From: Cenarchaeum sp.
GTDB lineage: Archaea; Thermoproteota; Nitrososphaeria; Nitrososphaerales; Nitrosopumilaceae
DNA length: 64,000 nt
Direction of reading: 5' to 3'
NCBI GenBank assembly: GCA_965206845.1
Contig: OZ242221.1
Span: forward strand, 480,001-544,000
Of this stretch, positions 1,740 to 45,481 are shown one piece after another. The notes under the pieces were generated by a model. It was not told the origin of the DNA. It saw nothing but the letters and a program-made list of their open reading frames with translations, and ran no database searches. Both the position numbers and the translations under genes were made by a program. Each line of letters opens with the position of its first letter. The stretch's first letter is position 1.

Positions 1740-1755
1740 CGGGCGGGGTGGGGCG

Positions 1756-2370: not shown

Positions 2371-2381
2371 CGGCCACGCTA

Positions 2382-3062
2382 TCAGCCTACCTGCACGGAG
2401 ATGGTGACCTCGGAGCCGTCCTTGAGTCCTGTTGCCTCCCGGATGCTCTCCCTTGCGATGATCTCGACGATGGACGGCTCGTGGTGCGTCCTCTCCAGGC
2501 GGATGAGGTGGCACGGTATCGTGCCGTTGACGGTTCCCGGAAAGCACTTTACCCACCCGTAGGCCCTCACCCCGTCATGGAACCCGTCGATCATGATGCC
2601 GTCCAGGGCGTCAAACTGCCGGCTTGACTCGACAAACTCCCTCTCCTCCAGCCTCACGTTGAGCGTTCCCGGAAACGGGACGTAGCCGATCCTCTTTACG
2701 AACTGCCTGGAGTACCCCTTGAGCGACATATAGTAGGCTCCCTCGCTCATGCCTGAGACCAGCAGGCCCTGGAGCTCGATCCTGGAGGGCGAGGCCGCCA
2801 GACTCGCCTGCAGCGTGCCCGATATCTTGAGCAGCTGCGAGTACCCCTCGGGCGTGATCCTGACCGAGATGCCCCTGCCGCTCTTTATGCGCTGGATAAA
2901 GCCGTATTTCTCAAGATCCACTAGGTGCTTTGATGCGGACTGCTGGGACCTGCCGACGTTCCTTCCGAGGGACGAGGTGGTGACCGGAACAAAGTTGTGC
3001 TCTGCCCCTTGGGAAAGAAGAAAAGAAAGGGTTAGGAGGTGTTGGATCTTTAAGCTTGTCAA
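2382..3062 (-). CDS. ribK: CTP-dependent riboflavin kinase with N-terminal wHTH
   Basis: SQQSASKHL..LE HTH; SGMSEGAYYM, PFPGTLN, ERTHH motifs. Confidence 0.9.
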   Translation of the reverse strand: MTSLKIQHLLTLSFLLSQGAEHNFVPVTTSSLGRNVGRSQQSASKHLVDLEKYGFIQRIKSGRGISVRITPEGYSQLLKISGTLQASLAASPSRIELQGLLVSGMSEGAYYMSLKGYSRQFVKRIGYVPFPGTLNVRLEEREFVESSRQFDALDGIMIDGFHDGVRAYGWVKCFPGTVNGTIPCHLIRLERTHHEPSIVEIIARESIREATGLKDGSEVTISVQVG

Positions 3063-3068
3063 GATACA

Positions 3069-4211
3069 CTATACAATACCGAGATCCGCGAATGTCTTCA
3101 GGTTGATGCCGCCCTTGTTTGAGAGCCTTGAGAGCCGGTGTCCCACCAGGTACTCGACCCCGGTCTTCTTGGCGCTCTCCAGGAGTCTTGGCGTTATGAT
3201 GCCGTCCAGTACCAGGTACTTGATGCCCGACTGTCCGGCCATCTTGTTCACAAGCTCGCTGATCGGCACCCTGAAGATCTCGGCCTGCTTGTCGTCTAGC
3301 GCGACTGCTTCCAGGGTCTCGTTGAGGTCAGGATATATCTTCCCGATTGCGTCTGCAAGCGGCTTGTCCTTCTTGTTCTTCAACGACGGGGGCTTGCTGC
3401 CTTCCTTGATCTCCTTTGCCACCGGTTCCAGAATCTCTGAGATTCTCTGCGGTGTGAGCTCCTCGACCTCGATTCCCGGATCCGCCCGCAGCTCATAGTC
3501 TATGGGCACCATGGATTTCAGCTCCCGAAGGATGAACCCGCCGGACCTGTCGCCGTCTAGAAACGCAACCACGGTCGCCTTGGCCGAGCATATCTCCTTT
3601 ATGGACTCGTCGATTCGCGCCCCCTCGATTGCAAGCGTGTTGTCGTAGCCTGCCCGAAGGAGGTTGATCACGTCGGCCCTTCCCTCGACCAGAATTATCC
3701 AGTCCGAGGTCTTGATGCCGGATCCGCAGGACAGCTTTGATGGCCCGTACGAGTCGATCTTGCCCGTGCGTCCCTCGTGGACATCCTTGAGTACCGTGTC
3801 GCCTTCGCTGACTGCCCGGGTCTTCCACTGCTGCTTGATCTCCTTTGCTCGCTTTGCGATCTCGTCCTTCTTCTTTGCCCTTATGTCATCGATGGTCTCC
3901 ATCTTGAACTTGCAGTTAAAGGGCCCGACCTTGTCGATGCTCTCTATGGACGCCGCTATCAGCGAACAGGTGTCGATGTTGGTACTCATGGGAATGAGTA
4001 TGTCGCCTGAGGTGGTGCTCGCCGTGGTAGAGAGGATGACCTCTATTCTGCCAACTTTGGAGACGCGCTGCAGCTCGTTTAGGTCATTCTCCGGCCCGAA
4101 GAGTCCCTCGGTCTGGCCGAATATGGCACCTATCATGTCGTTCCGTTCTACTAGACCATCGACTTCAAAGGATAGCTTAACGTGATACTTGACAATTCCC
4201 GATTGAGGCAT
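3069..4211 (-). CDS. dnaG: Archaeal DnaG primase-like protein (TOPRIM)
   Basis: GAIFGQTEGL, IILVEGRADV, FLDGDRSG, VEEL, DGIITPRL. Confidence 0.95.
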   Translation of the reverse strand: MPQSGIVKYHVKLSFEVDGLVERNDMIGAIFGQTEGLFGPENDLNELQRVSKVGRIEVILSTTASTTSGDILIPMSTNIDTCSLIAASIESIDKVGPFNCKFKMETIDDIRAKKKDEIAKRAKEIKQQWKTRAVSEGDTVLKDVHEGRTGKIDSYGPSKLSCGSGIKTSDWIILVEGRADVINLLRAGYDNTLAIEGARIDESIKEICSAKATVVAFLDGDRSGGFILRELKSMVPIDYELRADPGIEVEELTPQRISEILEPVAKEIKEGSKPPSLKNKKDKPLADAIGKIYPDLNETLEAVALDDKQAEIFRVPISELVNKMAGQSGIKYLVLDGIITPRLLESAKKTGVEYLVGHRLSRLSNKGGINLKTFADLGIV

Positions 4212-6821: not shown

Positions 6822-6866
6822 GTGTGGAGATCCAGGTGCAAATTATAATAATCTTTGCTCTGGTGG

Positions 6867-8095
6867 GGCTGTGTCCTAGAGACATAACCCCACAATCATC
6901 CGCCGTCGTCGCGTCGGTACGGGTATTCTTCGAATTCTTGGGATTGCGGTATTTTTCCCACATCTCCGGCTTCAAACGCTGTCCGAAACCGTAAAATCCC
7001 ATCCGATCCAAGGGATGGTGCGCAGGCTCCCCTACGGGCGGCGCGGGTGTCTCCGCGCCGGTTATGCAGCCATTGCAGTGAGCGACTCGTGCGTGAGCCT
7101 GCCGCTTTTTACGTGCGATCGCGCGACTACCTCTATGTTGTAACAAATGATCCGGATTGCAACCTCTCGGTTCTGCCGGACGAGCCTCCTGCCCCGGAGG
7201 TGGTTCCCGTACATCTTCTTGATTGCCCCAAAGACGGCTTCGATTATGCTGCGCTGGTGGTACTCTGCCATGAACCTGTCAAGGTCGTCCCTGTGGGTCC
7301 GGGTCATCTCGCCCCAGGCCTGGCTGCCGCCGTTCTTGCAGGTAGTGTTGGATTTGGGCAGGATGCGGGGCGTCATGCCCATGCCGGCTATCGCGTCGCA
7401 TATCAGTCTGGCCAGGTAGGCCGAGTCCAGGCAAAAGTTGCCGTTCCCGTCCGCAAGCCGGTCCAACATGGGCCACATGCCGGTGATGTCGGAGGTGTAT
7501 CCGTCGGTGACGTGATAGTCCAGGATGGCTCTGGTCGCGATATCGATGATGCTGTGAAGCTTGATCCACCCGCGCTTGGTCTTGGCCTGGCTGTGGCGGA
7601 TGCTGAACCAGCGGACGAACCGGTTGCCTGAGTAGCCGGTGCTGTCCCCGGCCAGCGAACCGGCCACGATGTCGCCTGTGATCCTCAGGTGAACCTCGCG
7701 CAGGTACGACTCGGGGATCAGGCCGTAGGCGCGCCATATGGTGCTCTTGGAGGGTATCCCGGACAGTCCGATCCTGCTGACAAGATCCGGGTGCATTCTG
7801 AGGCAGCCCACCGTCTTCCTGTAGGTCTTCATCTCTGCCTCCATCATGATGCAGACAACGGCCATGGCCTTTGGCGGATAGGCGGTCATGCCGCCCAGTC
7901 CAGGTCTGGCTTGGTAGGGGTCACCCATCTCCTTGACGGTGTTCAATATGGTGCTCAGTATCAGGCCCGGCAGGTACTGCTGGACAATATTGAATGGTCG
8001 CTGATCGCGTCTTCCATCTGTCATTGGCGGGGCCGCGATCCGCCGATCAATATACCCTGCTATTTAGAGATGATCTATATCTGTAGGACACAGCC
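6867..8095 (-). mobile_element. IS5-family insertion sequence, complete copy A
   Basis: TIRs GGCTGTGTCCTAGAGACATA / GGCTGTGTCCTACAGATATA (18/20); 9-bp TSD CTCTGGTGG at 6858-6866 and 8096-8104. Confidence 0.92.
7062..8024 (-). CDS. IS5-family DDE transposase
   Basis: GDSTG, KLH, CLDSAY, YHQRSIIEAVFGAIKK: D-D-E triad intact. Confidence 0.9.
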   Translation of the reverse strand: MTDGRRDQRPFNIVQQYLPGLILSTILNTVKEMGDPYQARPGLGGMTAYPPKAMAVVCIMMEAEMKTYRKTVGCLRMHPDLVSRIGLSGIPSKSTIWRAYGLIPESYLREVHLRITGDIVAGSLAGDSTGYSGNRFVRWFSIRHSQAKTKRGWIKLHSIIDIATRAILDYHVTDGYTSDITGMWPMLDRLADGNGNFCLDSAYLARLICDAIAGMGMTPRILPKSNTTCKNGGSQAWGEMTRTHRDDLDRFMAEYHQRSIIEAVFGAIKKMYGNHLRGRRLVRQNREVAIRIICYNIEVVARSHVKSGRLTHESLTAMAA

Positions 8096-8188
8096 CTCTG
8101 GTGGGATCCGATCCGGCAGGACTCTGCACCGCGCAGAATGGCTGCCTTTGGACGCATCTTAAATTGCCGGCATGCGTAATGCCGGCAG

Positions 8189-9303: not shown

Positions 9304-9375
9304 GAACTAGCCGGAATGTGGCCGACTTAAAGGTGTAACGAAGGGAAATTATATAGTTAAGTGAACTGCCGCCGC

Positions 9376-9832
9376 GGGGCCGGTAAGTTCCGGTGACCTG
9401 CCCAGGGTGGCGGAGTAACCTGGGAATGGATAAGAGAGGAGATCAGGCGGAGCCTTGGCCGCCTTAATGAGGGTCTTCCACTGTTGGCGTCCTCGGCCTC
9501 GATACCGGCGACCTGGGCCAAGGTGGTGTTGTCAGGCAGCCCAAGGTGTGGCCTGACAAAGTTGTGGTAGAGACGTAGCCTGGAGAGGATCGCCGAGTCG
9601 TCTTTCTTGAGGCTGCAGGTGACCTTCTCGCGCTGCCGCAGTGTGTTGCCGTTGAAGGACTCCATCTGGTTGTTGTTCATGGCGCCCGCCGTGTGGATGT
9701 GCCGCTCATACGTAGACTACTTGTGAAGGAAATTCGTGGCCTTGTGCTGCTTGTGGGCGCGCCTGAAGTTGAGTGTCCCATTTGATACCAGCGTCTCCAA
9801 CATGATCTAGGTCACGTCAACTTACCAGCCCC
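9376..9832 (-). mobile_element. Nested IS6-like mini-element carrying a decayed DDE transposase C-terminus
   Basis: 24-bp TIRs GGGGCCGGTAAGTTCCGGTGACCT / GGGGCTGGTAAGTTGACGTGACCT (20/24); 8-bp TSD GCCGCCGC at 9368-9375 and 9833-9840; absent from copy 2. Confidence 0.85.
9440..9800 (-). pseudogene. DDE transposase remnant (IS6/IS240-like archaeal type)
   Basis: TLVSNGTLNF (expected Asp is Asn), in-frame stop, NNNQMESFNG.LRQREK, YHNFVRPH.GL, frameshift before WKTLI; 5' truncated; boundaries approximate. Confidence 0.8.
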
Positions 9833-10270: not shown

Positions 10271-12007
10271 ATGAGACCCGTCATGGCAGAGGCAGAGGCA
10301 GAGGCAGAGACAGCAGCAGCAACGGAGCAGGCGGATGCAACCCCAACAGCGGCATCCGCGGCGCCTCCGGAGCAAAAAAAGAAGTCAGGGCGCGCGAGGG
10401 AAGGCACCACGGTGCGCACCATAAAGGTGAACTTTGACCAGTCGGCCGAGCTGTCGGATCTCATATCCCGCCACATGGACCAGCAGAGGTGGGCATACAA
10501 CATGGCGGTGCGGGAGAAGCTGAAAGACCCGAGGACAACCAAGTTCGACCTCAACAACATGCTCACCAAATGGAGGGACGAGAGGGCGTGGCTCGTCCAT
10601 GACAAGGAGGCGCTGGCCGCGGGACGCAAGGAGGCCTGTGATACCAGGGTGCAGCGGGCCGGCCTCAGGCAGGGCCTCGACGCCGTGGATAAGTTCATGG
10701 CATCCAACGGGAAAAAGCGCCGCAACAAGTCCCTGTGGAAACACCTGGCCAGGCTCTATCGGGAAAGGGAGGGCATTGAGGATATCGACACCGCTCCCAA
10801 CCTGCCGTCCAACAAGTGGAGCATCAAGAGGAACAAATGGACCCGCAGGGACTCCCTGTTCAGCAGAAAGGGCGAGATGAAGTCCCTGACGGTCTTTGAG
10901 AAGCCCGTCTACAAGGGCAACAACATGGTGATGCTCCCCGGCATAGGTACCGTAAAAGTCCACGGCGACGTTGAGGATCTTGATATGCGCTCCTTCCAGC
11001 TCGTCGAGACGACAAAGAGGACCACAAAGCGCACCGAGGACCGCAACAGGACGTACCGGCTCCACATCCAGATCAGGATAAAGGCCCCAGAGCCGCCGGA
11101 ATCCGCGGTTATCAGGGGCGTCGACATGGGCATAGTGCACGGCGCCGCCACGGTGGATCTGGACACGGGCAGCCACGCGTTCCATGACCTCCCAAAGGAC
11201 TGCAGGAGGGCAAAGGATGATGACATATCGAAGATGTACTCCGAGCTCTCACAGAAACGCGGCGGGAGGGGCAACCGCAGGATCAGGCAGGACGCCAATG
11301 AAGGCGCGGATGGCGGAAACAGCGGTAGCGGCAGCAGCAACAACACGAGCGGCCACAACAGGAACAAAACAAGGAAGCCCAAGTCCAGAAGCTACAAGGA
11401 GCTCCAGAGGAAGATCAAGAATAAGCGCGAGAGGCTCGCCAACCGCCAGACCAACTGGGAGCGCCACGCCTCCAAGAGTATAGCGGACGGCGCCGGCACG
11501 GTGGCAATGGAGGACTTGGACCTCGTGAACATGACTGCAAGGGCCAAGGGCAAGGGAAGCTCGGCCAAGACGGGGCTCAACCGCGAGATGGCGTACTCAA
11601 GGCCCGGGACGTTCCAGAGGCTGATCAGGGGCGCCTGCGAGAACGCCGGAGTGGCCGTAATAATGGTGGACCCCAAGGGCACCAGCATCACATGCCACCA
11701 GTGCGGCCACAGGGACGAGAACTCCCGCGCGTCGCAGGCAAGGTTCCGGTGCACCAATGACAGATGTGAGAATGACGTCAACGCGGACATCAATGCCGCG
11801 TATAATATTGCCTCCAAGGCGGAAGCCGTGGCAGCAGGGCGGCCGGGAAGGTCGTCTGAAGGCGCGAGACACCAGCGCGGGATTGCTCCCGCGCGTTCCC
11901 CAGACAGGGCGCGAGAGCCAAGCGCCGGGGGGTTGCAAGAGCGCCAGCAAAAGGCATGGGTGCTGTACACTCATGTATATAATTCCCTAACGAAGGAACT
12001 ACTTTGA
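10271..12007 (+). CDS. tnpB: TnpB-like RNA-guided RuvC endonuclease (~578 aa)
   Basis: RWAYN helix, RuvC-I GVDMG, RuvC-II AMEDL, Zn finger CHQC..CTNDRC, Ruv[14 protein letters not shown]; TTTATA at 10241 supports ATG 10271 (ORF track starts 10019). Confidence 0.9.
11835..11987 (+). ncRNA. Candidate omegaRNA/reRNA scaffold, copy 1
   Basis: ~150 nt near-identical between the two copies despite a frameshift; hairpins GCGCGGGA/TCCCGCGC, GGCGC/GCGCC, CATGGGTG/CACTCATG; position matches TnpB reRNA. Confidence 0.55.
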
Positions 12008-26439: not shown

Positions 26440-27574
26440 GTGTGTTGCATAATTCCCCCTGCTCGCTTAGAACATGCACGGGCCTTGCATATTTTGGACT
26501 ACACCGCACCTGCCCCCATGTCTACCAGCCTATTGTACGTGGCCACCTTGATCCTGACTTCCTGCACCACGTTCTTCCACTTTAGCGAGTACAGGTGCTC
26601 GCCGAACATCCGCTTGAATGCAGAGAACACGATCTCCGCCAGCCATCTCTTGCCGTACTCGACCTTCTTTTTCCATTCCTCCCGGAAGCGCCTTTTCTCG
26701 CCGTCTGACACCTTCCACACGTGGTTGTCAGCGGATCCGCCAAGCTGCTTCCTGACTGCGATCCCCCATGCGTCGCCGGTCCCTTTCCCGCGCGCCATCG
26801 AGTTTACCCTGAGCTTGATGCGCGAACCCACGCCGCGATCCCCGCATGCAGTCACGTTGCTTCTGGAAGCGTAAGCGGCATCCCCGTGCAGGCAGCATCC
26901 TGCGTCTGCCGGCCCGGCGGCGGAATCCTGCGCCTGGCCTGTCCGCATCGCAACCTCCAAGGCCTCGTCAAGCAGCGGAATGAGCATCGGCGAGTCTCCG
27001 GTTCTGTCGTCGGTGACCTGGACTGCCAGTATCTTCTTCGTGTCCACGTCCACCATCACGTGGAGCTTGACGAATCCTCTCCGGACCTTCCATTTGTGTC
27101 TGATCCACTCCCCCCTGTTGTGCTGCTTTAGGCCGGTGGAGTCGACTGCGAGGCGGACCGGCACTGTCCCGCCGCCCGTGACGGTAAACACGCTGCCATT
27201 CCTTTTGACCTCCAATGCCTGGAACCTCCTGCATATGGTCGTGTAGCAGGGCGTGTCCCAGTCACCTAGCGTCTCAATCAGCATTCCCTGCAGGTGCCTG
27301 TACGGCAATCCTGTCATCGATTTTACCGCCGCCAGGGCCGCAAACAGTGACTCGGCGTACTGGAACGGCGCGCCCACCTTGTTCCTGTTGGCGACCATCA
27401 CCTCCTCGTGCCTTTGCGGATCGTCCCGGATGATCAGCGCTTGGCCGCGCTTGACGTATTTCTCGTTGTCAGTCATCAGCAATCTGTGTCTGATCCACTG
27501 ATCCTTAGCTTTTTCGGTCTCGGACGGAGTGGGGATATTCACGGTAATGTGCTAGGAGGAATTATGCAACACAC
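26440..27574 (-). mobile_element. IS5-family (IS903/ISC1058-like) insertion sequence
   Basis: TIR GTGTGTTGCATAATTCC(C/T)CCT at both ends, flanked by TA. Confidence 0.88.
26499..27542 (-). CDS. IS5-family DDE transposase
   Basis: AVDSTGLK..RGEW, KLH, GDAAY, YGKRWLAEIVFSAFKR. Confidence 0.9.
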   Translation of the reverse strand: MNIPTPSETEKAKDQWIRHRLLMTDNEKYVKRGQALIIRDDPQRHEEVMVANRNKVGAPFQYAESLFAALAAVKSMTGLPYRHLQGMLIETLGDWDTPCYTTICRRFQALEVKRNGSVFTVTGGGTVPVRLAVDSTGLKQHNRGEWIRHKWKVRRGFVKLHVMVDVDTKKILAVQVTDDRTGDSPMLIPLLDEALEVAMRTGQAQDSAAGPADAGCCLHGDAAYASRSNVTACGDRGVGSRIKLRVNSMARGKGTGDAWGIAVRKQLGGSADNHVWKVSDGEKRRFREEWKKKVEYGKRWLAEIVFSAFKRMFGEHLYSLKWKNVVQEVRIKVATYNRLVDMGAGAV

Positions 27575-27739
27575 TAGATCTTAAAGACAGCCCCCGCAGT
27601 CCGAAAAGTAGCACATTTCCCGTGTGGGACACCGTTACCGGAGAGCGCCGTGTCGTGGAAGACGCCTGTCAGGGTGCGGCACCTAGCGTAAGGATCCAAT
27701 TCCCCTAAGGTTAATTTAAGACAAGATCAGAGGGATCCC

Positions 27740-28492
27740 ATGAGACTGCAAGACAAGGTTGCAATCGTTACCGGCGCGTCAAGCGACATCGGTGTCAGCA
27801 TAACAGAGCGGTTTGTCCAGGAGGGAGCCAGTGTGGTGCTTCTCGGACGGGATCTTGGGCGCCTGAAGCGCGCCGCAGGAGGCAGCAAGAATGCGGTACC
27901 GATGACATGCGACGTCACCAGCGAGGCGCAGGTAATACAGGCAATAGACCAGATAATGGACAAGTACGGCAAGATCGACATACTGGTAAACGGGGCAGGA
28001 GCCATCAACGATCCTGTGCACCTGCACAAGATGCCCGATGCCGAGATAGATCGTCTGCTGGACGTGAACCTCTACGGCGTCCTCAGGCCGACCAAGGCCG
28101 TGCTGGCCAAGATGAGCGAGGCGCGCAGCGGATCCATAGTCAACATCGGATCCATCAGCAGCGAGCGCGCCATTCCACGGGTGCACTTGGCGGTGTACTC
28201 TGCAGCAAAGGCGGCAGTGAGCATGTTTACAAAGGCAGTAGCAGTGGAGTATGCCAGGCGCAACATCAGGTGCAACTGCGTGAACCCGGGCATCATCAAC
28301 TCGGGAATGATCAAGCCGTATCTGGAGGATCCCAATGCCCGGAGGGTGTTGGAGGACAGGCTCCCGCTGAACAGGGTGGGAGAACCGGAAGACGTCGCAA
28401 ACGCCGTGCTCTTTCTGGCGTCAGACGAGGCAAGCTGGATTACAGGGGTCGTGCTGAACGTGGACGGCGGCAAGACGGCATCCGAGGGCTAG
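27740..28492 (+). CDS. SDR family oxidoreductase
   Basis: TGASSDIG, NGAG, YSAAK, N.V.PG, VDGG. Confidence 0.92.
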   Translation: MRLQDKVAIVTGASSDIGVSITERFVQEGASVVLLGRDLGRLKRAAGGSKNAVPMTCDVTSEAQVIQAIDQIMDKYGKIDILVNGAGAINDPVHLHKMPDAEIDRLLDVNLYGVLRPTKAVLAKMSEARSGSIVNIGSISSERAIPRVHLAVYSAAKAAVSMFTKAVAVEYARRNIRCNCVNPGIINSGMIKPYLEDPNARRVLEDRLPLNRVGEPEDVANAVLFLASDEASWITGVVLNVDGGKTASEG

Positions 28493-31508: not shown

Positions 31509-33954
31509 CCTTTACCAGGTATACGGCGATGGCAGCGGCCACCGCTGCCGCCACTCCCACAAGCGCATACACATACTCCTGGCCGCCTGCATCTGATGCG
31601 CCCGTATCCTCTGCCTTCACATCCAAGATTCCGCGATCCACTTCCAGCGCCAGGAAGCTGATGGTGTAGATGTCAGGCCGGAGCACCTCGTCAGATATCA
31701 CGAACAGCTTCAGCTCGTTCGAGCCCGGCCGCAGCATGGAGGATGTGTCCCCATCCAGCACCAGCGTGAACTCATCGTCCAGAATGCTGTCGGTGCCTGT
31801 CAGTATCTGCTCCCCCAAGGCGTTTGTCACAAAGTAGTGAATCGTGGTGGCATCCTTGGTTGTAACAGGGATCTGGGCCTCATTGCCGATCTGGATCACG
31901 TCCGGAAGCTGCACCGAGAGTATCTCGGGAAATTTGCCCTCCTCAAAGGCTGCCCAGTGGCCCGCCTCAATGGGATATGACGGGTCGTCAAAGGCACGGA
32001 TCTTGATCAGTCGCGACTCGGGCGAGTACCCATCCAGATAGAACGGGCCGTTGCTGATTACCGCATGGTCGCTCTCCTGAATCCACCTTATGGCAGCGTC
32101 GTACCTGGCTGCTGCGTATTCGGCGCCTATGCGGCCTGCCAGGGCCGCCGGAATGTGGCCCGAGTCCCTAGAGTCCTCCAGGTATCCCAGGATCATCTGC
32201 GTGTCGTCGGGGATCAGCAGCGAGAGCCAGCTCACATTCTTGCTGGTGGCGCCGGATCGGGAGAACGACGTCTTGCCGTCCAGTACTGCCTGCTCCATGG
32301 CCACATACACCTCCCAGGGCATCGTGCTCCACAGGGAGGCCCAGTCGGCAATCTCCGAGTCGTCAAAGTGCCAGTAGTCGACGTACACCTGCACCGTGTC
32401 GTGATCCAGGATCCGGACGCCCTTTAGCGTATTCACGTACTGGGACGTCCGCGGCGTAAACTCGGCATCAAACGTGCGGTCGTCACCCTCTTGGGCCGAG
32501 CCCCACTCCAGCGTGAAGTACAGCCCGTACAGGATGTCGTTGATATCCATCTCCTGCCCGTGGTGCCAGTTGCTGAAGTCCAGGTCAAAGACGACGCTGC
32601 TTGTGGCCTGCGAGCCTGCAGGCACGGGTTCCCAACTCTGGCTGGCGACGTTCCAGAGTATGGCATCTGCGGGAACGTCAAGGCTGCCCCCGGATCCCGC
32701 GGTGTCGATATCCCAGCTGCCCCGGACCGGGACGAGCTCGCCGTTGAAGGGGTGATTGAGTGCTATGGGATCATAAAGGCTGCGCCAGATGTAGGCGCTG
32801 TAGACGTCGCTGAATCCCACCACCGGATTCCACGATCCCTGGTATATCTGCTTGACGCCCACCACCAGCGAACCCGAGTCGGTTCTGGCATTGATTGGTG
32901 TAAGCCTGGTGGTCACGCCGGCGCCAAAGTCGTTGATCACGCCCTCGACCCCGTCGTTGGCCACATACTGCTCGGTCCTGCTGGCAAGAAATATCCTCAC
33001 GGACTCCCTGACCCCTTCCAGTGTTGCGTCCTGTATGAGTTCTGCCCGCTCTTGGGCCGAGGTAAAGTTTCCCGCGTATATGCTCTTTGTCAGGCCGTCC
33101 AGATACTCGTTCTCATAGTTCCAGTTGCTGGGATCGTTGGAACCCGGCATGTTCGAGAACCACGGCGAGTACATCTGCCCCAGGCCCGTCGAGTCGTACT
33201 TGACAAAGGCAGAGCTGCCCCAGCCCTCGGTGTATATGTGCCACTGTAGATCCGCCGGGTTGGAGCCGTACACGACCACAAACGCCTTGTTGAGATCACC
33301 AAAATCCCTGTGTACCACAAATCCCACTGCCTTAAGCTCCGCTGCCAGTATCTCCCCTATCGACTTTCTGACCGGATCGTCGCTGCGGATGAATATGTTA
33401 ATCTCGATTGGCTGATCCTCATAGTGCCATATGCCCTCGGACTCTGTCGCGCCGTACTCCAGCAGAGCCTGCGTGATCATCTGATCCGCCAGTGCCGGGT
33501 TGTACCTGAAGCTAAAGGACTCCAGCTCCTCGATTATGTTGAGGTAGTCGGGATCGTGGGGCCCGTAAAACGAGATTTTGGACATGCCAAACCCGCCCAT
33601 GAGCTCGTTTACTATCAGATTTCTGTCCACCAGATAGTTCAGCGCAAACCGCACCTCCTGCAGATGGAACGGGTTGAACCGATCGGATACGGCGGGATTG
33701 ATCAGTATGCTGTTGGTGCCTCCCGAGGATTCGAATACCTGGATGCCGGTGCGGGACTCGGAGCTCTCTATTCTGTTCGAGGGGACTGTATAGTAGTAGA
33801 TGTCCAGGTTGCCGTTGCGCACCTCCTCTAGCGCGGTGTTCTCATCCAGATACTGGATGAATGTCACCTCGTCGACAAAGGTGCCCTTCTCTGCATATGC
33901 CGCATACGTCATGCCCAGAGACAGGGCCGCAACCAGAAAGAGCAGGGTTTTCAT
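31480..33954 (-). CDS. ABC transporter substrate-binding protein, family 5
   Basis: Signal peptide MKTLLFLV.., NPF...VRFALN.LVDR, ISNGPFYL, C-terminal TM anchor. Confidence 0.88.
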   Translation of the reverse strand: MKTLLFLVAALSLGMTYAAYAEKGTFVDEVTFIQYLDENTALEEVRNGNLDIYYYTVPSNRIESSESRTGIQVFESSGGTNSILINPAVSDRFNPFHLQEVRFALNYLVDRNLIVNELMGGFGMSKISFYGPHDPDYLNIIEELESFSFRYNPALADQMITQALLEYGATESEGIWHYEDQPIEINIFIRSDDPVRKSIGEILAAELKAVGFVVHRDFGDLNKAFVVVYGSNPADLQWHIYTEGWGSSAFVKYDSTGLGQMYSPWFSNMPGSNDPSNWNYENEYLDGLTKSIYAGNFTSAQERAELIQDATLEGVRESVRIFLASRTEQYVANDGVEGVINDFGAGVTTRLTPINARTDSGSLVVGVKQIYQGSWNPVVGFSDVYSAYIWRSLYDPIALNHPFNGELVPVRGSWDIDTAGSGGSLDVPADAILWNVASQSWEPVPAGSQATSSVVFDLDFSNWHHGQEMDINDILYGLYFTLEWGSAQEGDDRTFDAEFTPRTSQYVNTLKGVRILDHDTVQVYVDYWHFDDSEIADWASLWSTMPWEVYVAMEQAVLDGKTSFSRSGATSKNVSWLSLLIPDDTQMILGYLEDSRDSGHIPAALAGRIGAEYAAARYDAAIRWIQESDHAVISNGPFYLDGYSPESRLIKIRAFDDPSYPIEAGHWAAFEEGKFPEILSVQLPDVIQIGNEAQIPVTTKDATTIHYFVTNALGEQILTGTDSILDDEFTLVLDGDTSSMLRPGSNELKLFVISDEVLRPDIYTISFLALEVDRGILDVKAEDTGASDAGGQEYVYALVGVAAAVAAAIAVYLVKVRGRASSRQ

Positions 33955-34180
33955 GAAATGAAGAGAGCCTGCATAAAAATAAAGGTATGCCGCCCGAACT
34001 GTGCAGCCAGCCACGATATCTGCCAAGATGCAGGCATGGGGGCATTGAGCTATCACTCTGCTGTTTTTTTAACTGCGCTGCTCAGCTGGCAGTCCTGCAG
34101 ACCAGTAGCATAACTGGGGAAGCTGTTGCCCATACGCCAACACTACTAACGGCACCCGATTGAGGCGCCACATCGTGCAG

Positions 34181-34342
34181 TCATGGTTTCATCTTACTGT
34201 ATTTGTCCCGCGCCTTTAGGTACTCCTCAAGAATTTTATGACAAGTGTCACAGATCATTATCTTCTCCCCGATCTCCTTGTCGTGGTGCACTGTAAGTGA
34301 CTTAATGCTCTTGCAGCAAGGACATATTCCCAAACCGCCCAT
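34181..34342 (-). CDS. Small zinc-binding protein with HNH-like motif (53 aa, below ORF-track cutoff)
   Basis: MGGLGICPCCKSIKSLTVHHDKEIGEKIMICDTCHKILEEY..; TATA box TTTAAATA (34371-34364) 21 bp upstream. Confidence 0.7.
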   Translation of the reverse strand: MGGLGICPCCKSIKSLTVHHDKEIGEKIMICDTCHKILEEYLKARDKYSKMKP

Positions 34343-34371
34343 AGCAGGGATATGAAATGTACTTATTTAAA

Positions 34372-34527
34372 GGGAATTATATACATGAGTGTACAGTACC
34401 CATGCCTTTTGCTGGCGCTCTTGCAACCACCCCGGCGCTTGGCTCTCGCGCCTTGTCTGGGGAGCGCCCGGGAGCAATCCCGGACTGTGGCCTCGCGCCT
34501 TCAGACGACCATCCCGGCCGCCCTGCC
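34372..34527 (-). ncRNA. Candidate omegaRNA/reRNA scaffold, copy 2
   Basis: Homologous to 11835-11987; hairpins retained (GTCCGGG/TCCGGGC, CATGGGT/ACTCATG). Confidence 0.55.
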
Positions 34528-35990
34528 GCTTTCACGGCAATATTATGCGCCGCGTTTATGTCGGCGTTGATGTCATTGTAACACTTGTCATTGGTGCAGA
34601 GGAACCTCCATTGGGAGATCCTGGATTCCTTGTCGCTGTGGCCGCACTGGTGGCATGTGATGCTGGTGCCCTTGGGGTCCACCATAATTACGGTCACGCC
34701 AGCATTGGCGCAGGCGCCCATGATCTGCCGCTGGAAAGTCCCGGGCCTTGAGTAGGCCATCTCGCGGTTGAGTCCCGTCTTGGCCGCGCTCCCCCTGCCT
34801 TTTCCCTTGACCGTCATGTTGTTTAGGTTGAGGTCCTCCATGGCCACGACGCCGGCGCCGTCCGCTATCCCCTTGGAAACGTGTCTTTCCCAGTTCGTCT
34901 GGCGGTTGACGATCTTCTCGCGTTTCTTCCCGATATTCCTCTGGAGATCCTTGTAGCTTCTTGACTTTGGCTTCCTCGGCTTGTTTTTGTTGTTACTGTT
35001 ACCGTTCCCGTTCCTGCCTTCATAGGCATCATGCCTGATGCGCCTGTTCCCGCGTCCACCGCGCTTCTTTGAGAGTTCTGAATACATCCTGGATAGGTCG
35101 TCATTCTTGGCGCGTCTGCAGTCCTTTGGGAGGTCGTGGAACGCGTGGCTGCCCGTGTCCAGATCCACTGTAGTGGCCTCGTGGATGATTCCCATGTCAA
35201 CGCCCCTGACAATTGTGGACTCGGACGGCTCTGGAGCCTTGGTTTCAACCTGGATGTGGAGCCGGTACGTCCTGTTGTGGCTCTCGGTGCGCCTCGTTGT
35301 TTTCTTGGTCGTCTCCACCAGCTGAAAGGATCGCATGTCGAGCCCCTCCACGTCGCCGTGCACCCTCACGGTGCCTATGCCAGGAAGGTGCAGCATGCCG
35401 TTGCCCTTGTATGTGGGCTTCACAAACACCGATAGAGACCGCTGCTTCCCCTTCCTCTTGAACAGGGAATCACTGTGGCGCCACCTGTTCCTCTTGTTGC
35501 TCCACTTGTTCGATGGCAAATTTTCCGCCGCGTCAATATTCTCGACACCATCCTTTTCCCTGTAGCGCCTGGCCAGGTACTTCCACAGTGACTTGTCTGC
35601 GCGCTTTTTCCCGTTGGATTTCATGAACTTCTTTACAGCGTCCAATCCTTGCAGGAGCCCTGCCCTCTGGACAAGGACGCCGCCCTTCATCCACTCCTTT
35701 TCGTTTCTCCACTTCGTGAGCATCTTGTTGAGGTCAAACTTGGTTGTCCTCGGATCGTTGATCTTCTCCCTGACGGCCATGTTGAAAGCCCACCTCTGCT
35801 GGTCCATGTGGCGGGATATGAGATCCGACAGCTCCGCCGACTGGTCAAAGTCCACCTTTATGTTGCGTATCATGGCGCCCTCCATTTGGCGCTTTGACCA
35901 CTTTTTTGGCGCCGGCCCGGTTGCAGCTGCGGCTACATCCACATTCTCCATTGTTGCCACTGTTGCAGCCGGCGCGATTGCCGTTGCCAT
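34377..35990 (-). CDS. tnpB: TnpB-like RNA-guided RuvC endonuclease (~537 aa)
   Basis: GVDMG, AMEDL, CHQC..CTNDKC, NADINAAHNI; stop TAA lies inside the TIR; start chosen from TTTAATA box at ~36020 (ORF track 36026). Confidence 0.9.
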   Translation of the reverse strand: MATAIAPAATVATMENVDVAAAATGPAPKKWSKRQMEGAMIRNIKVDFDQSAELSDLISRHMDQQRWAFNMAVREKINDPRTTKFDLNKMLTKWRNEKEWMKGGVLVQRAGLLQGLDAVKKFMKSNGKKRADKSLWKYLARRYREKDGVENIDAAENLPSNKWSNKRNRWRHSDSLFKRKGKQRSLSVFVKPTYKGNGMLHLPGIGTVRVHGDVEGLDMRSFQLVETTKKTTRRTESHNRTYRLHIQVETKAPEPSESTIVRGVDMGIIHEATTVDLDTGSHAFHDLPKDCRRAKNDDLSRMYSELSKKRGGRGNRRIRHDAYEGRNGNGNSNNKNKPRKPKSRSYKDLQRNIGKKREKIVNRQTNWERHVSKGIADGAGVVAMEDLNLNNMTVKGKGRGSAAKTGLNREMAYSRPGTFQRQIMGACANAGVTVIMVDPKGTSITCHQCGHSDKESRISQWRFLCTNDKCYNDINADINAAHNIAVKAAGRPGWSSEGARPQSGIAPGRSPDKAREPSAGVVARAPAKGMGTVHSCI

Positions 35991-36236
35991 GGCGTGTCTT
36001 GCCATGCGTTTAATATTAAACATCACATAAAAGCCGGCGGCCGTACCATGCGGGCAGTGCCGGCCGGCGTCGTAAAACCTGGAACAATCGCCGGCCAGTT
36101 AGGAACCTGGAAGACCGGTCTGCCGGACAGCATGATCTGCCTGAACGGGAAGCCCCGGCCATGCAACAGCGCCGGCAGTTCACTTAACTATATAATTCCC
36201 TATTTAAACAGGAAAGGTAGGTGAGTCTGGCCACTG

Positions 36237-37154
36237 CTAGGGGGATCCTCTCAGGGATGCCAGAAGCGCCTTTTGCGTGTGGAGCCGGTTCTCCGCCTCA
36301 TCCCACACCGCAGACTGTGGTCCGTCAATTACCGATGCAGTAACCTCTTGTCCGCGCTTTGCAGGAAGGCAGTGCATGAATATCGCATCCGGTTTTGCCT
36401 CCCCCATCAGTGCGGAGTTTACCTGGAACTTTGGAAGGAATCTTTTGATCTTTGATGGGTCCATGTTGTGAATGGATGAAAAGGTGTCAGTCATCACCAC
36501 ATCCGCATCCTTTGCTGCGGTGGCAGGACTTGTGACCAGCTGCACATCGGTTATCCGAGCCGAGTCTTCCACCACCTTCGGGTCGGGCCGAAACTCCTCC
36601 GGCGTGGCAACGGAGATGCCCATGCCGGTGCCGGCGCAACCCAGTATCAGTGAGTTACACACGTTGTTGCCGTCCCCGATCCAGGCAACCTTCAGGCCTG
36701 CAAGGTTCTTCTTCCTCTCCTTGATGGTCATCAGATCCGCCAGGGTCTGGCACGGGTGAAACGAGTTAGACAGTCCGTTGATTACCGGGACGCGCGCGGC
36801 AGCCGCCAGGTCCTCCACCATTTCGTGGTCAAAGACCCGAGCCATGATATAGTCCACATATCCAGAGAGCGTCCTTGCGGTGTCTCCGATCGTCTCCCCC
36901 CGCGATAGCTGCATATCGTTTGATGAGAGCACCACCGCGCTACCTCCCAGCTGGTACATTCCCACCTCAAAGCTCACACGTGTCCTGGTTGATGGTTTTT
37001 GAAATATCATTGCAAGTGTCTTGTTCTTCAAAAGCGGTTTTGATACGCCGCTCTTTAGATCCTTCTTGAGGCCTGTAGCGAGATCAATTAGGGAGCCAAT
37101 CTCGTCTGGGGAGATTTCGTCAAACCGAAGAAAGTCCTTTGTTTGTAGGCTCAT
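36237..37154 (-). CDS. argF: Ornithine carbamoyltransferase
   Basis: STRTRVSF, HPCQ, GDGNNV, FMHCLP, EAENRLH. Confidence 0.96.
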   Translation of the reverse strand: MSLQTKDFLRFDEISPDEIGSLIDLATGLKKDLKSGVSKPLLKNKTLAMIFQKPSTRTRVSFEVGMYQLGGSAVVLSSNDMQLSRGETIGDTARTLSGYVDYIMARVFDHEMVEDLAAAARVPVINGLSNSFHPCQTLADLMTIKERKKNLAGLKVAWIGDGNNVCNSLILGCAGTGMGISVATPEEFRPDPKVVEDSARITDVQLVTSPATAAKDADVVMTDTFSSIHNMDPSKIKRFLPKFQVNSALMGEAKPDAIFMHCLPAKRGQEVTASVIDGPQSAVWDEAENRLHTQKALLASLRGSP

Positions 37155-38794
37155 CATCTAAACCTTCCAAAGAGTCCCTTTTTCTTTTTTGCCTTTTCTG
37201 GCTCCTTCAGATCGTCCTTTTGTGGCTCTTCCGTTGAGGATTCCTTCAGATCGACATTTTGTGGTTTTGGCGCCTCGTCTGGAGCGGGCCTGTTGTCTGA
37301 TATCCACCTTCTGACCTTGTCTGCAAGCAGGGCGGCCCGGCGGTCATCCTCTGGTGGGGCGACATCGTAAAGATCAGAGTACAGGACAATGTCTGCGGTG
37401 TTGATTCCCTCAAAGGGATCGCCCTCTGATTCTGCGGCTTTCTGTTTTTTGGGCTCTGTCTCTTCTCGCACCTGCGGGGATTCTGCAACAGTCTGCTCCC
37501 GGGTCTCCGCCTCGGCTGCCTTCGGTATGCCGCCGATCTCGCCCACAAGCCCGTCTTTGGTATCCGGCTTCTCTGCAGTCGGCTCCTCTGTGGGTTCCGC
37601 CATGGATTCTGGTTCTGCTTCGGTGTCCGGCTCTTCTGGAGTGTCAGGCGCCTCTGGAGCAGTCGGCTCCTCTGGGGGCTCTGCCATGGGCTCTGGCTCC
37701 ACTTTGGTAGCCGGCGTCTCTGCGGCGATCGGCTCTTCTGGAGATCCTGCCTCGGGTTCTGGCACATTCCCGGCATCCGGCTCTGCGGCAGGCTCCTGTC
37801 TGGCCTCCTCACCTGGGGCCGGTTCCATGGCATCTCCCGCACCGGCAGGCGCCCTCTCAGGCAGCGCGGCCTCCAGATCCACCCCGTCCAGTGAGCCAAA
37901 CACCGTCTTTAGAAAGACGTCCTTGTCAAAGGGCGCAAGGTCGCCGTACTCCTGGCCCACGCCCACAAAGATCACCGGCGTCGAGGTAACCTTGACGATG
38001 GAGAGCGCAGCTCCCCCGCGGGCGTCCGCGTCGCTCTTTGTCAGAATGGACGCGTTAAACTTTACATGGTTGTGAAACTCCCGGGCCTGGTTTACCGTGT
38101 CGTTGCCTGCCAGTGAGTCGCCGACGAATACCGTCAGGTCTGGCCTCACCACGTTGGTTATCTTTACAATCTGCTCCATCAGGTTCTTGCTGGTCTGCAT
38201 CCTTCCCGCGGTGTCGATCAGAATGCAGTCGATCTTGTGGGATCTCGCATACAGCACGGCGTCCCGGGCCACCGCCGCGGGATCCGCCCCGTAGTTCTGC
38301 GCGATAATCTTGAGGTGCAGCCGGTTCATGTGCTCCTTTATCTGCTCGATGGCGCCGGCCCTGAAGGTGTCCGAGGCCGCCACAGCAACAGAGAGCTTGG
38401 AGTTCTTCAGCAGGTGCGCAACCTTGGCCACCGTGGTGGTCTTTCCCGTCCCGTTGATTCCCACAAACAGTATGATGTAGGGATCCGGCGACTCCTTCTT
38501 TGCCCGGATCTCTTCCAGCACGTCCACCGTGCCCGCATCATCAAACATCCCGGATATGAGTCGGATCAGTCCGCTCCTGACAAATGCAGACACCTCGGAT
38601 TTGTCGACCCTGGAACTCACCAGCCTACCCTTGAGGTCGTCCTTGATGGAGTTGATGACCTCAGATGCCACGTCGGATTCCAGCAGGGAGACCTCCAGAT
38701 CAAACAGCACGCCGTCGATGTCATCTTCGTTTAGCTCCTTCTCGCCCAAGTTCTTTGCGACATTTGAAAACGCGGTTCGAAGCTTGTCAAACAT
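37154..38794 (-). CDS. ftsY: SRP receptor FtsY with acidic C-terminal extension
   Basis: GINGTGKTTT, DTFRAGA, DTAGR, TKSDADARGG, GVGQ.Y.DL. Confidence 0.95.
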   Translation of the reverse strand: MFDKLRTAFSNVAKNLGEKELNEDDIDGVLFDLEVSLLESDVASEVINSIKDDLKGRLVSSRVDKSEVSAFVRSGLIRLISGMFDDAGTVDVLEEIRAKKESPDPYIILFVGINGTGKTTTVAKVAHLLKNSKLSVAVAASDTFRAGAIEQIKEHMNRLHLKIIAQNYGADPAAVARDAVLYARSHKIDCILIDTAGRMQTSKNLMEQIVKITNVVRPDLTVFVGDSLAGNDTVNQAREFHNHVKFNASILTKSDADARGGAALSIVKVTSTPVIFVGVGQEYGDLAPFDKDVFLKTVFGSLDGVDLEAALPERAPAGAGDAMEPAPGEEARQEPAAEPDAGNVPEPEAGSPEEPIAAETPATKVEPEPMAEPPEEPTAPEAPDTPEEPDTEAEPESMAEPTEEPTAEKPDTKDGLVGEIGGIPKAAEAETREQTVAESPQVREETEPKKQKAAESEGDPFEGINTADIVLYSDLYDVAPPEDDRRAALLADKVRRWISDNRPAPDEAPKPQNVDLKESSTEEPQKDDLKEPEKAKKKKGLFGRFR

Positions 38795-43995: not shown

Positions 43996-44223
43996 CAGTA
44001 ATCCCAGATGTGCCAGATCTAGCACCTGTGAGAGTTTAGGTCACCCCCATCATGCCCATGAAGAGCTCAATTTGGCATGGGTCAAACCCCCGTATTCTGC
44101 CGCACGCGTCATCATTTGTGCCTAAATCTACATGAAATGGCCAAAAATATCTGAGTGGGACCAACCCTCCACTCAGTCAAATGGTGGCGACTTAACCTCT
44201 TACTGGCACATCTGGGATTACTG
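43996..44223. mobile_element. MITE with CAG-terminal TIRs (ISH3/IS701-like)
   Basis: Perfect 21-bp TIR CAGTAATCCCAGATGTGCCAG; 5-bp TSD TACTA at 43991-43995 and 44224-44228; no ORF. Confidence 0.85.
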
Positions 44224-44246
44224 TACTAAGATATACCTGTCCAATA

Positions 44247-45481
44247 GGCTGTGTCCTAGAGACATAACCCAACAATAACCGGCTGACGCGGCGCCGGTAC
44301 GGGCATTATCAGAATTCCCAAGATTTGCAGTCTTTTTCGGATGTTGCCGGTTCAGGATCTGGTTCGCAACCGTAAAATCCCGCCCTGCCTGACATGGCAC
44401 GCGCAGGCTCCCCCACGGAACGGCGCGGCGGTCACCGCGCCAGTCCGGCAGCCATTGCAGTGAGCGACCCGTGCGTGAGCCTGCCGTCTTTTACTTGCGA
44501 GCGCGCGACCACTTCGACGCTGTAGCAGACGGCCCGGATTGCAATCTCCCGGCCCTGTCGGCCGCGCCTGCGGCTCCGGAGGTGGTTCCCGTACATTTTC
44601 TTGATTGCCCCAAAGACGGCCCCGATTATGCTCCGCTGGTGGTATTCGTCCAGGAACCTGGCCATCTCGTCCCTGTGCGTCCGGATCATGTCTCCCCACG
44701 CCTGGCTGCCCCCGTTCTTGCAGACGGTGTTGGATTTGGGCCGGATGCGCGGTGTCATGCCCTTGTCGGATATGGCGTCGCATATCTTCCTTGCCAGGTA
44801 GGCCGCGTCCAGGCAGAAGAGGTCGGTACCATCTTCGAGCCTGCCCAGCATCGGCCACAGTCCTGCGATGTCAGAGGCGTACACGTCGGTGACCAGGTAG
44901 TCTAGGGCGGTCCTGGTGGACACGTCGACTATGCTGTGCAGCTTGACCCAGCCGCGCTTGAGCCTGACCTGGCCGTGGCGGATGCTGAACCACCTGGCGA
45001 GCCTGTTGCCGGAGTAGCCGGTGCTGTCCCCGGCCACCGAGCCGGCCACCATGGCGTCGCCGATGATCCTAGTGTGGACCTCCCGCATGTACGGCTCGGG
45101 GATCAGTCCGTAGGCGCGCCAGATGGCGCCCTTGGAGGGTATCCTGAGCAGCCCCACCATCCGGGCCAGATTCGGGTTGATCCTGAGATGGCCCACCGTC
45201 TTTCGGCAGGTACGCGCCTCTGCCTCCATGAGGGTGCAGACGACAGCCATGGCCTTTGGCGGGTAGGCGGTCATGCCGCCCAGTCCGGGTTTGGCCCGGT
45301 AGGGGTCACCCAGATACTCGACTATCCTCAGTACCGTGTTCAGTATGGGGCCCGGCAGGCGCTGCCGGACCAGTTCGTAGGGTCGCTGATCGCGTTTTCT
45401 TTTTTTCACTGGATCGGGCCGCGATCATCGGATCATTGTGCCTTGCGATTTTGAGGAAGCATATGTCCGTGGGACACAGCC
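44247..45481 (-). mobile_element. IS5-family insertion sequence, copy B (relative of 6867-8095)
   Basis: Ends GGCTGTGTCCTAGAGACATA / ..GGGACACAGCC; no flanking TSD. Confidence 0.88.
44432..45409 (-). CDS. IS5-family transposase, catalytic Glu replaced by Gly
   Basis: Homologous to 7062-8024 but QRSIIGAVF instead of QRSIIEAVF. Confidence 0.85.
   Translation of the reverse strand: MKKRKRDQRPYELVRQRLPGPILNTVLRIVEYLGDPYRAKPGLGGMTAYPPKAMAVVCTLMEAEARTCRKTVGHLRINPNLARMVGLLRIPSKGAIWRAYGLIPEPYMREVHTRIIGDAMVAGSVAGDSTGYSGNRLARWFSIRHGQVRLKRGWVKLHSIVDVSTRTALDYLVTDVYASDIAGLWPMLGRLEDGTDLFCLDAAYLARKICDAISDKGMTPRIRPKSNTVCKNGGSQAWGDMIRTHRDEMARFLDEYHQRSIIGAVFGAIKKMYGNHLRSRRRGRQGREIAIRAVCYSVEVVARSQVKDGRLTHGSLTAMAAGLAR

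Follow-up and report, generated by a model that had tools for sequence, protein, structure and literature searches.

The present study examines a 64,000-nucleotide stretch of a Cenarchaeum sp. genome (contig OZ242221.1, positions 480,001 to 544,000; hereafter the window) and, within it, a 1829-bp element at 34372-36200, hereafter copy 2. Its sole long open reading frame (ORF) encodes the nuclease TnpB, and the element is bounded by terminal inverted repeats (TIRs) and an 8-bp target-site duplication (TSD). On balance, we consider it probable that copy 2 is a passenger-only member of a lineage of TIR elements with termini GGGAATTATATA(C) and A/T-rich 8-bp TSDs, whose autonomous members in a sister genus carry an IS1595-type transposase, and that its TnpB, with an omega-RNA guide and a G resembling a target-adjacent motif (TAM), acts in homing. 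This reading builds on the anatomy of the element, its mobility with TSD formation, purifying selection on the nuclease, a structured 3′ region, ends held in common with IS1595 elements, and a G on one flank only; mobilization in trans, a guide, a TAM, cleavage, and homing are what it proposes in addition.

Anatomy, copies, and mobility of the element

The limits of copy 2 were set by direct reading and re-checked by script. Its termini, GGGAATTATATACATGAGTGTAC and GGGAATTATATAGTTAAGTGAAC, match at 19 of 23 positions, the first 12 being identical, and the TSD TATTTAAA lies at 34364-34371 and 36201-36208. The initial annotation had described such a 1829-bp element with 19/23 TIRs and a TSD, holding a short leader and an intact tnpB that ends in TAA inside a TIR, and all of this was borne out: the gene runs on the minus strand from an ATG at 36003-36005, encodes 542 aa, has a 195-bp leader (36006-36200), and stops at 34377-34379, within the TIR at 34372-34394. 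That annotation spoke of the right TIR, which is correct in the orientation of tnpB and incorrect on the plus strand, where this TIR is the left end. At up to one mismatch, the window has four occurrences of the 12-mer terminus, at both ends of copy 2 and of a sister element, copy 1; the number expected by chance is 0.05.

Judged by its profile and structure matches, the copy 2 protein is a member of the TnpB family. It matched NF040570 with 122.8 bits (cut-off 100) over profile positions 2-387 of 389 and PF07282 with 53.9 bits (2e-14; cut-off 26.3); its PF01385 score, 23.8 bits, was below the cut-off of 30.5. Cas12f/TnpB structures matched at 1e-9 to 1e-10, in alignments that span the zinc finger together with RuvC-II and RuvC-III. 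Alignment with Cas12f structures supports the catalytic E and the final D, and the first D is assigned by motif only. The motifs RGVDMGI, AMEDL, and NADINAA and a C-x2-C...C-x4-C zinc finger are present in 12 of 12 intact copies. Between copies 1 and 2, nonsynonymous divergence (dN) is 0.152 and synonymous divergence (dS) 0.767, with indels in addition, so that the two proteins have indeed diverged by substitutions and indels with catalytic and zinc-binding residues kept, as first remarked. Contigs from RNA libraries (two runs of one study) cover 34662-35840 of tnpB and leave 33900-34369 and 35874-36437 uncovered; such contigs cannot prove transcription and give no evidence for a transcript boundary.

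The host is a sponge-associated archaeon with a complete genome (1.65 Mb, 57% G+C); public runs containing window DNA include two labelled sponge metagenome. The copy 2 TnpB gave 25 tblastn matches in this genome. Seventeen sets of ends could be paired, of which 15 are full-size elements of 1829-2644 bp, copy 2 being the shortest. All 15 are TnpB-only, with no IS1595 transposase between their ends. The TSD is a perfect 8 bp in 10 of them, matches at 6-7 of 8 positions in 3, and is lacking in 2, and the TIRs of the genome copies range from 13 to 128 nt. The tnpB ORF is intact in 12 of the 15; eight ORFs stop at a TAA in the TIR and three extend beyond the element end. Leaders homologous to that of copy 2 occur in the transposase-less copies E375k, E489k (copy 1), E972k, and E1075k and, in part, in E1053k. 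In the leader alignment, copy 2 has a ~210-bp internal deletion relative to its sister class-A leaders.

Short elements with the same ends, resembling miniature inverted-repeat transposable elements (MITEs), lie at genome 938659-939364 (706 bp) and 1178387-1178755 (369 bp) and, in the genome G064, at 1710543-1710860 (318 bp); they hold only scraps of tnpB or of its 3′ region. A 7.6-kb stretch between two solo ends (1300194-1307807) was rejected as an element, as ordinary host genes lie inside it. Relatives elsewhere amounted to one locus in the genome-contig collection, none in the metagenome-contig collection, only distant matches among 100 genomes of the host's family (in G064), none at 1e-60 among 400 genomes of the class, and 202 relatives in the protein database, which come without genomic context.

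Mobility is seen between strains. The sister element L029, with TSD TAACGTAG, has flanks that are ~99% identical to the host genome and overlap by that TSD; the host genome has a single copy of the same 8-mer there and therefore represents the empty site. Two end-flank junctions from public runs likewise fall at sites that are empty in the host genome, one a right-end junction at genome 534896 (window 54896) from an RNA library, and the other a left-end junction at genome ~980503-980510 from a DNA run. Sites polymorphic between strains number three in the host genome, at ~534896, ~976878, and ~980503. A comparison of filled and empty alleles had been suggested for copy 2 itself, and it gave one half of the answer: the filled allele was found, both junctions being bridged by DNA contigs of two studies, and no empty allele was seen among the public-run contigs, none of which joined across, though contigs cannot show absence. 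In the same-genus genome G006, the flanks are only ~70% identical and lie on different contigs. The contig carrying L029 is labelled as a Dehalococcoidia metagenome-assembled genome and is probably mis-binned; outside the insertions, its whole 9.8-kb locus is ~99% identical to the host archaeal genome.

Ends shared with IS1595-type elements

The source of these ends is indicated by the sister genus (g18). The terminal 13-mer GGGAATTATATAC occurs 24 times in the host genome and 8, 2, 22, 25, and 40 times in the five g18 genomes sampled. None of the remaining 95 genomes of the family has it more than once, and a reversed-pattern control gave 0-1. In g18, GGGAATTATATAC ends, always with 8-bp TSDs, enclose several types of cargo. 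Some elements are TnpB-only (1.4-1.6 kb). Others (L109-L112, L115, L141-L143, L145) have between the same termini a transposase with PF12762, DDE_Tnp_IS1595 (E 2.6e-35 to 2.9e-40), and a Zn_ribbon_IS1595 domain, either alone (~2.0-2.1 kb), with an N6/N4 DNA methylase (in one case fused to HNH), or with larger cargo; one element with these ends is methylase-only. As to cargo, N6/N4 methyltransferase genes and larger cargo were noted within the same ends in L109-L113, L115, L143, and L145, the larger cargo including, in a 7-kb element, ORFs of 734 and 414 aa. L109 also contains an IS630-type gene, and L145 a similar ORF of 336 aa.

The host genome has one intact IS1595-type transposase gene, at 27542-28456, which is 58-61% identical to those of g18, and a broken IS1595-type copy that begins ~60 nt inside an exact end at 1467226. 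The TSDs of the TnpB elements are 71% A+T in this 57% G+C genome. The termini of copy 2 presumably also resemble the ISNwi1-group consensus of ISfinder, and the ISNwi1 group carries passenger genes. A/T-rich 8-bp repeats are reported for an insertion sequence (IS) of the IS1595 family, ISApl4 (PMC12561309). From these comparisons, we read copy 2 as a non-autonomous relative of IS1595-type elements with TnpB as its passenger, and not as an IS in its own right.

No cognate transposase in cis was present in the ~40 TnpB elements examined. Two candidates appeared in elements of this kind, and both were rejected as cognate. In L029, a 443-aa ORF upstream of tnpB is an IS66 transposase (PF03050, 4.9e-26; NF033517, 186.9 bits against a cut-off of 180), which belongs to an IS66 element (1692-3681) that has GTAAC... 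TIRs and a TSD (TTCGGTAG) distinct from those of the TnpB element. This IS66 element is inserted 13 nt inside the end of the TnpB element and is itself split by a ~140-bp MITE, and IS66 copies in G064 have ends of the same GTAAC type. In copy 1, a 107-aa ORF is the C terminus (residues 354-418 of 433) of an IS6-type transposase, the relatives of which carry PF13610, and the piece holding it (9376-9832) likewise has TIRs and a TSD (GCCGCCGC) that differ from those of copy 1. The GGGAATTATATA ends were absent from 27 of 27 IS6-type loci inspected; the IS6-type family was tallied in 41 of 101 genomes, including three unpublished genomes (G076, G091, G092) on which none of our conclusions depends. 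Thus, the initial description of elements that have lost their transposase was not supported, since no copy with a cognate transposase in cis was found and the transposases in copy 1 and L029 are nested ISs.

That description came in essence to the assumption that copy 2 is a decayed remnant of a composite IS once equipped with its own IS6- or IS66-type transposase, which we now consider highly unlikely. The transposase fragment in copy 1 and the IS66 ORF upstream of tnpB within the L029 TIRs would suit it, and the IS6 family makes 8-bp TSDs. So does the IS66 family (PMC3916326). However, the IS66 and IS6-type pieces are nested insertions with TIRs and TSDs of their own (TTCGGTAG, GCCGCCGC), and GGGAATTATATA ends bound neither any of the 27 IS6-type loci nor any of nine resident IS families. 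The latter were likewise rejected as a source of the ends (0/9); they comprise four DDE_Tnp_1 groups, rve, IS110, DDE_Tnp_4, IS630, and one frameshifted IS5-like family, with boundaries set automatically from BLAST and rough for four families with 2-3 copies.

Remnants of the IS66-family IS nested in L029 also lie in the window. The segment 20712-21569 starts at the GTAACAG end of this IS and holds the first ~260 transposase codons; compared with the 443-aa L029 ORF, residues 1-176 are 88% identical. The segment 19311-19513 corresponds to the 3′ end of the transposase gene, and the genome has no intact copy of this IS. Ends of the copy 2 type were also sought in other TnpB groups. The 440-aa group of G099 lacks them: at eight of nine loci no paired ends were found, and the only pair, at the ninth, was poor, with 0/8 TSD matches. 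In a 444-aa TnpB group, no pair of ends was found in two loci.

Selection on the nuclease

Ratios of dN to dS were obtained by the NG86 method for 66 pairs among the 12 intact tnpB genes. Over the core of 444 codons, median dN was 0.151, dS 0.751, and dN/dS 0.23 (range 0.18-0.32). In the last ~55 codons, dS fell to 0.20 and dN/dS was ~1.1. Therefore, purifying selection acts on the protein sequence of the core, and the constraint on the tail is one on its nucleotides rather than on its amino acids. Between copy 2 and the copies sharing its leader, dN/dS was 0.18-0.20 at dS 0.67-0.79, which indicates that selection operates in transposase-less elements. The purifying selection that had been supposed for the nuclease, with dN/dS across copies named as its check, is thus supported by the median of 0.23 and by the intactness of 12 of 15 copies at dS ~0.75.

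Strong purifying selection in a genome lacking a proven cognate transposase would also be expected if the tnpB copies were domesticated host genes, that is, RNA-guided regulators or defence factors not acting for the element. Domesticated relatives of TnpB do exist (PMC10705468). We nevertheless regard domestication as improbable, as the catalytic D/E/D residues and the zinc finger are kept and the 15 copies are dispersed, with intact TIRs and TSDs, with insertions polymorphic between strains, and with a guide region that differs at each copy. Moreover, the known domesticated forms are, to our knowledge, nuclease-dead.

A structured 3′ region

The nucleotide-level constraint on the tail coincides with a conserved secondary structure. 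RNAalifold, applied to the aligned last 200 nt of 17 copies, gave seven helices comprising 41 pairs, and 10 of these pairs show compensatory changes. Paired cells made up 97.6% of the observed alignment, against 91.3% after shuffling and 32-52% for slid structures; the covariation score was 0.237, against 0.120 for shuffled alignments (the observed score being reached by 0 of 500 shuffles) and at most 0.095 for slid ones. Several pairs are G-U in 17 of 17 sequences, which points to an RNA of the tnpB sense strand and not of the opposite strand. The last helix includes the inner half of the TIR and is followed by eleven unpaired bases up to the element end. Blocks such as GGGCGGCnGGGAnnGTCGTCC and the terminal hairpin are also found in the sister genus, in which the proteins are ~36-40% identical over the C-terminal part. 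A scan of the region against Rfam gave no family match, only one chance match with E = 0.71. At the level of conserved structure, we infer that the 3′ region of copy 2 (~180 nt) is an omega-RNA scaffold.

At genome 1188043-1189924 and 1049606-1051551 (L008 and L015), the last ~127 nt are repeated in inverted orientation at the leader end, and this repeat corresponds to about two thirds of the omega-RNA-like region. In these two elements, an outward transcript could in principle also carry a scaffold fragment beside the other flank.

A one-sided G beside the insertion

With tnpB oriented from left to right, we recorded the base just 5′ of the left (leader-side) TSD. This base was G in 16/16 elements, namely 15 in the genome and L029, in one of the two run-derived junctions (the other has T), and, within g18, in 16 of the 17 L114-clade elements counted (the exception has A). 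The L114-clade count takes elements with TSDs of at least 7/8 and leaves out L127, L128, L129, and L137, with bases G, A, A, and C. The total is 33 of 35 TnpB elements in two clades (binomial p ~7e-9 for the one clade and ~3e-9 for the other). Non-TnpB elements with the same ends have G in 2 of 10 cases on that side and on 4 of 20 sides overall; Fisher's test of 33/35 against the first six non-TnpB controls gave p = 1.6e-4. At the mirror position, after the right TSD, C occurs in only 3 of 14 elements here, and the first TSD position is T in 11 of 14. At two empty sites where the base was inferred or read, it is G in both.

An alternative source of this signature would be a target preference of the transposase, with the TnpB passenger conserved for another benefit, such as stimulating transposition or recombination. 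The conserved flank is indeed one base only, the TSD itself is biased (T first in 11/14) in a manner that a transposase could impose, and a clear flank motif is lacking from two further TnpB subfamilies that share these ends. On the other hand, the ends are near-symmetric, over 23-128 nt in many copies here and at least 16 nt in g18, and would predict a symmetric transposase preference; yet the G stands on the tnpB-5′ side only, with a mirror C in 3/14, and non-TnpB elements with the same termini have it on 4/20 sides. This one-sidedness favours a TnpB-linked cause without proving one, and we rate a preference of the transposase as unlikely.

The G also lies at a fixed distance from the junction, and this, together with the lack of a cis transposase in ~40 TnpB elements, might be taken to mean that TnpB itself makes the insertions; the 8-bp duplication would then arise by fill-in of staggered RNA-guided cuts, and a DDE transposase would have no part in it. 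Methylase-only and transposase-bearing elements have the same ends and the same TSD length, however, which points to the transposase. Furthermore, the many unrelated new sites could not have been selected by a guide derived from the previous flank, and no conserved motif stood 15-25 nt upstream (positions -20 to -10 viewed). Integration by TnpB is, in our judgement, extremely unlikely.

Under the TnpB-linked reading, the G would occupy the position of a TAM, as in the empty allele it stands directly 5′ of what would be the target of a read-through guide composed of TSD and flank. We propose, tentatively, that the G is the footprint of a minimal TAM, in that cut-and-paste TIR/TSD elements of these archaea would survive only where their own TnpB and omega-RNA can cut the empty allele, with the duplicated 8 bp as target seed. 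In the mechanism that belongs to our main reading, an IS1595-type transposase acting in trans would move the element and make the 8-bp TSD, and a transcript running through the scaffold into the flank would yield a guide made of the TSD and the next bases. At an empty allele (5′-G, TSD, flank), TnpB would meet the TAM-like G beside a full match and cut, and recombination with a filled copy would restore or spread the element. An empty site of a TSD-forming element regains a single TSD copy, which would form the target seed. At a filled allele, the TIR end ...CCC stands before the right TSD copy and the left copy matches over 8 nt only, and the element would thus spare itself. Retention or homing by cutting empty alleles, which the initial annotation had already put forward, is plausible, and the orientation-specific G at the putative TAM position lends it one indirect support.

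Several observations weigh against this scheme. The G is absent (0/5; A or T) from a third TnpB subfamily with the same ends and from a fourth (0/4; mixed), and there are exceptions within the two clades counted (T in 1 of 18 junctions here, A in 1 of 17 in g18). Characterized TAMs have 4-5 nt, and a single conserved base is much less. No element with both an IS1595 transposase and tnpB was found, the two close pairs that were opened (L118, L119) being separate neighbours, and no exact TIR lies beside the intact IS1595-type gene of the host (27542-28456), so that a working partner in this genome is only putative. No RNA ends were seen for the scaffold, in a data set whose RNA-library contigs cannot prove transcription. 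Finally, the copies have diverged to dS ~0.75 with no near-identical pair, which speaks against a recent burst within this genome. The lack of G in the third and fourth subfamilies fits clade-specific TAMs, with own motifs not evident at these numbers. The fourth subfamily (L165-L168, in G064) comprises 461-aa proteins in 1407-bp elements with ends GGGAATTATCGG..., and its 8-bp TSDs are G+C-rich with no conserved flank base, those of the other groups being A/T-rich.

Features of the window

The coordinates of copy 2 and of its sister are collected in Table 1. Copy 2 occupies an intergenic gap and disrupts neither neighbour gene. On one side lies a minus-strand ORF of 53 aa with a CxxC...CxxC pattern (34181-34342) and on the other a minus-strand gene (36237-37157) which, read by eye, is putatively the 3′ end of an ornithine-carbamoyltransferase-like gene.

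Table 1. Features of copy 2 and of sister copy 1 (window positions; strand with respect to the window; a dot marks features without strand)
Feature	Start	End	Strand	Basis or remark
Flank beside the tnpB-3′ end, putative guide template	34352	34371	-	Would be read through from the omega-RNA scaffold; guide role by analogy with TnpB systems; first 8 nt = TSD copy
TIR, tnpB-3′ end, GGGAATTATATACATGAGTGTAC	34372	34394	.	Holds tnpB stop TAA 34377-34379
Omega-RNA-like scaffold overlapping the tnpB 3′ end	34372	34550	-	Covariation and nucleotide constraint; seven helices 34383-34550, unpaired 11-nt tail to element end
tnpB, 542 aa + stop, IS605-type RNA-guided nuclease	34377	36005	-	Profile matches; RuvC D/E/D motifs, zinc finger
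Leader, with A/T-rich TATA-like stretch just 5′ of ATG	36006	36177	-	Leader alignment; putative promoter role
TIR, leader end (reverse complement GGGAATTATATAGTTAAGTGAAC)	36178	36200	.	Sequence comparison
Second TSD copy TATTTAAA	36201	36208	.	Script check
TAM-like base, G in tnpB orientation (C on plus strand), directly 5′ of leader-side TSD	36209	36209	-	Flank comparison
Sister copy 1, 2644 bp, TSD TAACGAAG at 9336-9343 and 11988-11995	9344	11987	+	Transposase-less; tnpB from ~10271 to element end
Nested IS6-type remnant in copy 1, 457 bp	9376	9832	-	Own TIRs GGGGCCGGTAAGTT / GGGGCTGGTAAGTT, own TSD GCCGCCGC; last ~65 codons of PF13610-type transposase

The genome as a whole is repeat-rich, with 156 merged repeat intervals of at least 400 bp. 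Among these repeats is a 1.24-kb IS with a 325-aa DDE_Tnp_1 transposase and TIRs GGCTGTGTCC..., present in the window at 44247-45481 and 6864-8099 and in 12-13 copies in the genome. Beside its first-named copy, at 43996-44226, lies one of five genome copies of a ~230-bp MITE-like repeat, which also interrupts tnpB in L029 (5318-5548). The ~140-bp MITE-like repeat that splits the IS66 transposase in L029 (1969-2112) has at least 35 copies in the genome.

Relation to known systems

Most of what is understood about TnpB comes from IS200/IS605 and IS607 elements, whose excision leaves no scar. Copy 2 shares with the IS200/IS605-IS1341 group the nuclease family NF040570, an omega-RNA (here, the predicted one) that overlaps the ORF 3′ end and abuts the element end, and the frequency of tnpB-only copies. 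IS200/IS605 elements have neither TIRs nor TSDs and use a Y1 TnpA (PMC13565253). They insert 3′ of a motif of 4-5 nt. In contrast, copy 2 has 19/23 TIRs and an 8-bp TSD, 10 of the 15 copies have a perfect TSD, and an empty site has a single TSD copy. With its TIRs and TSD, copy 2 is therefore not an IS200/IS605-type transposon. Homing or retention by cutting vacant sites is a published model for IS200/IS605 TnpB (10.1101/2023.03.14.532601, PMC10690162).

TnpBs linked to DDE transposases, their inverted terminal repeats, and solo TnpBs with the ends of transposase-bearing relatives have also been published (PMC10691335). As in the DDE-associated TnpB branches of that study by Altae-Tran et al. 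(2023), TnpB in copy 2 lies within inverted terminal repeats, with the 3′ end of tnpB less than 250 bp from the transposon end, and as in its solo TnpBs, the gene is flanked by the ends of transposase-bearing relatives. Unlike in those DDE branches, no pairing of transposase and tnpB in cis was found here, and a one-sided flank base is not described in the passages of that study compared here. Its main text names IS630 as a DDE partner and has no occurrence of 'IS66'. A 2026 review lists ISL2, IS630, and IS1031 as TnpB-linked DDE families and calls the link of TnpB to DDE transposases rare in prokaryotes and of unclear benefit (PMC13565253). Searching the literature by title and abstract, we found no link between IS1595 and TnpB, though the supplements of PMC10691335, outside that search, may name the family; for a link of ISBst12 to TnpB in archaea, nothing relevant was among the matches listed. 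The kind of element is thus already known, and what is new here is the one-sided flank signature, previously unnoted.

Copy 2 resembles IS1595-family ISs in having TIRs that begin with GG and 8-bp direct repeats rich in A/T (PMC12561309). A passenger gene is a further point in common, namely with the ISNwi1 group. It differs from them in lacking a transposase and in that its passenger is an RNA-guided nuclease with the presumed guide scaffold built into one TIR. It is unlike the IS66 family in that its ends are not GTAA... TIRs, and unlike the IS6 family in that none of the 27 IS6-type loci has TIRs of the copy 2 type and the PF13610-type fragment in copy 1 has its own. The closest parallel in eukaryotes is with Fanzor in DDE transposons, likewise a TnpB-family nuclease in cut-and-paste elements with TIRs and TSDs that are often non-autonomous (PMC3627910, PMC10530073). 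Unlike Fanzor elements, copy 2 has an archaeal host, and no Fanzor structure was among the PDB sequence matches of its TnpB at E ≤ 0.01.

Implications

With dozens of TnpB-only elements that have IS1595-type ends and TSDs, are polymorphic between strains, and bear a flank signature just where a TAM would be expected, this lineage lends itself to testing on a small natural set. Were the G to prove no TAM, the mistaking of nested ISs for an element's own transposase would still have been corrected. If the G is a TAM, it would explain how homing could work despite a TSD and would offer a nuclease whose TAM is very permissive and whose scaffold, of ~180 nt, is defined. A minimal TAM, if true, would furthermore provide natural, population-level evidence for RNA-guided homing of DDE-type transposons in prokaryotes. 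Fanzor-bearing elements would then have an equivalent in archaea, in which TnpB modules travel as free-riding passengers of an IS1595 lineage.

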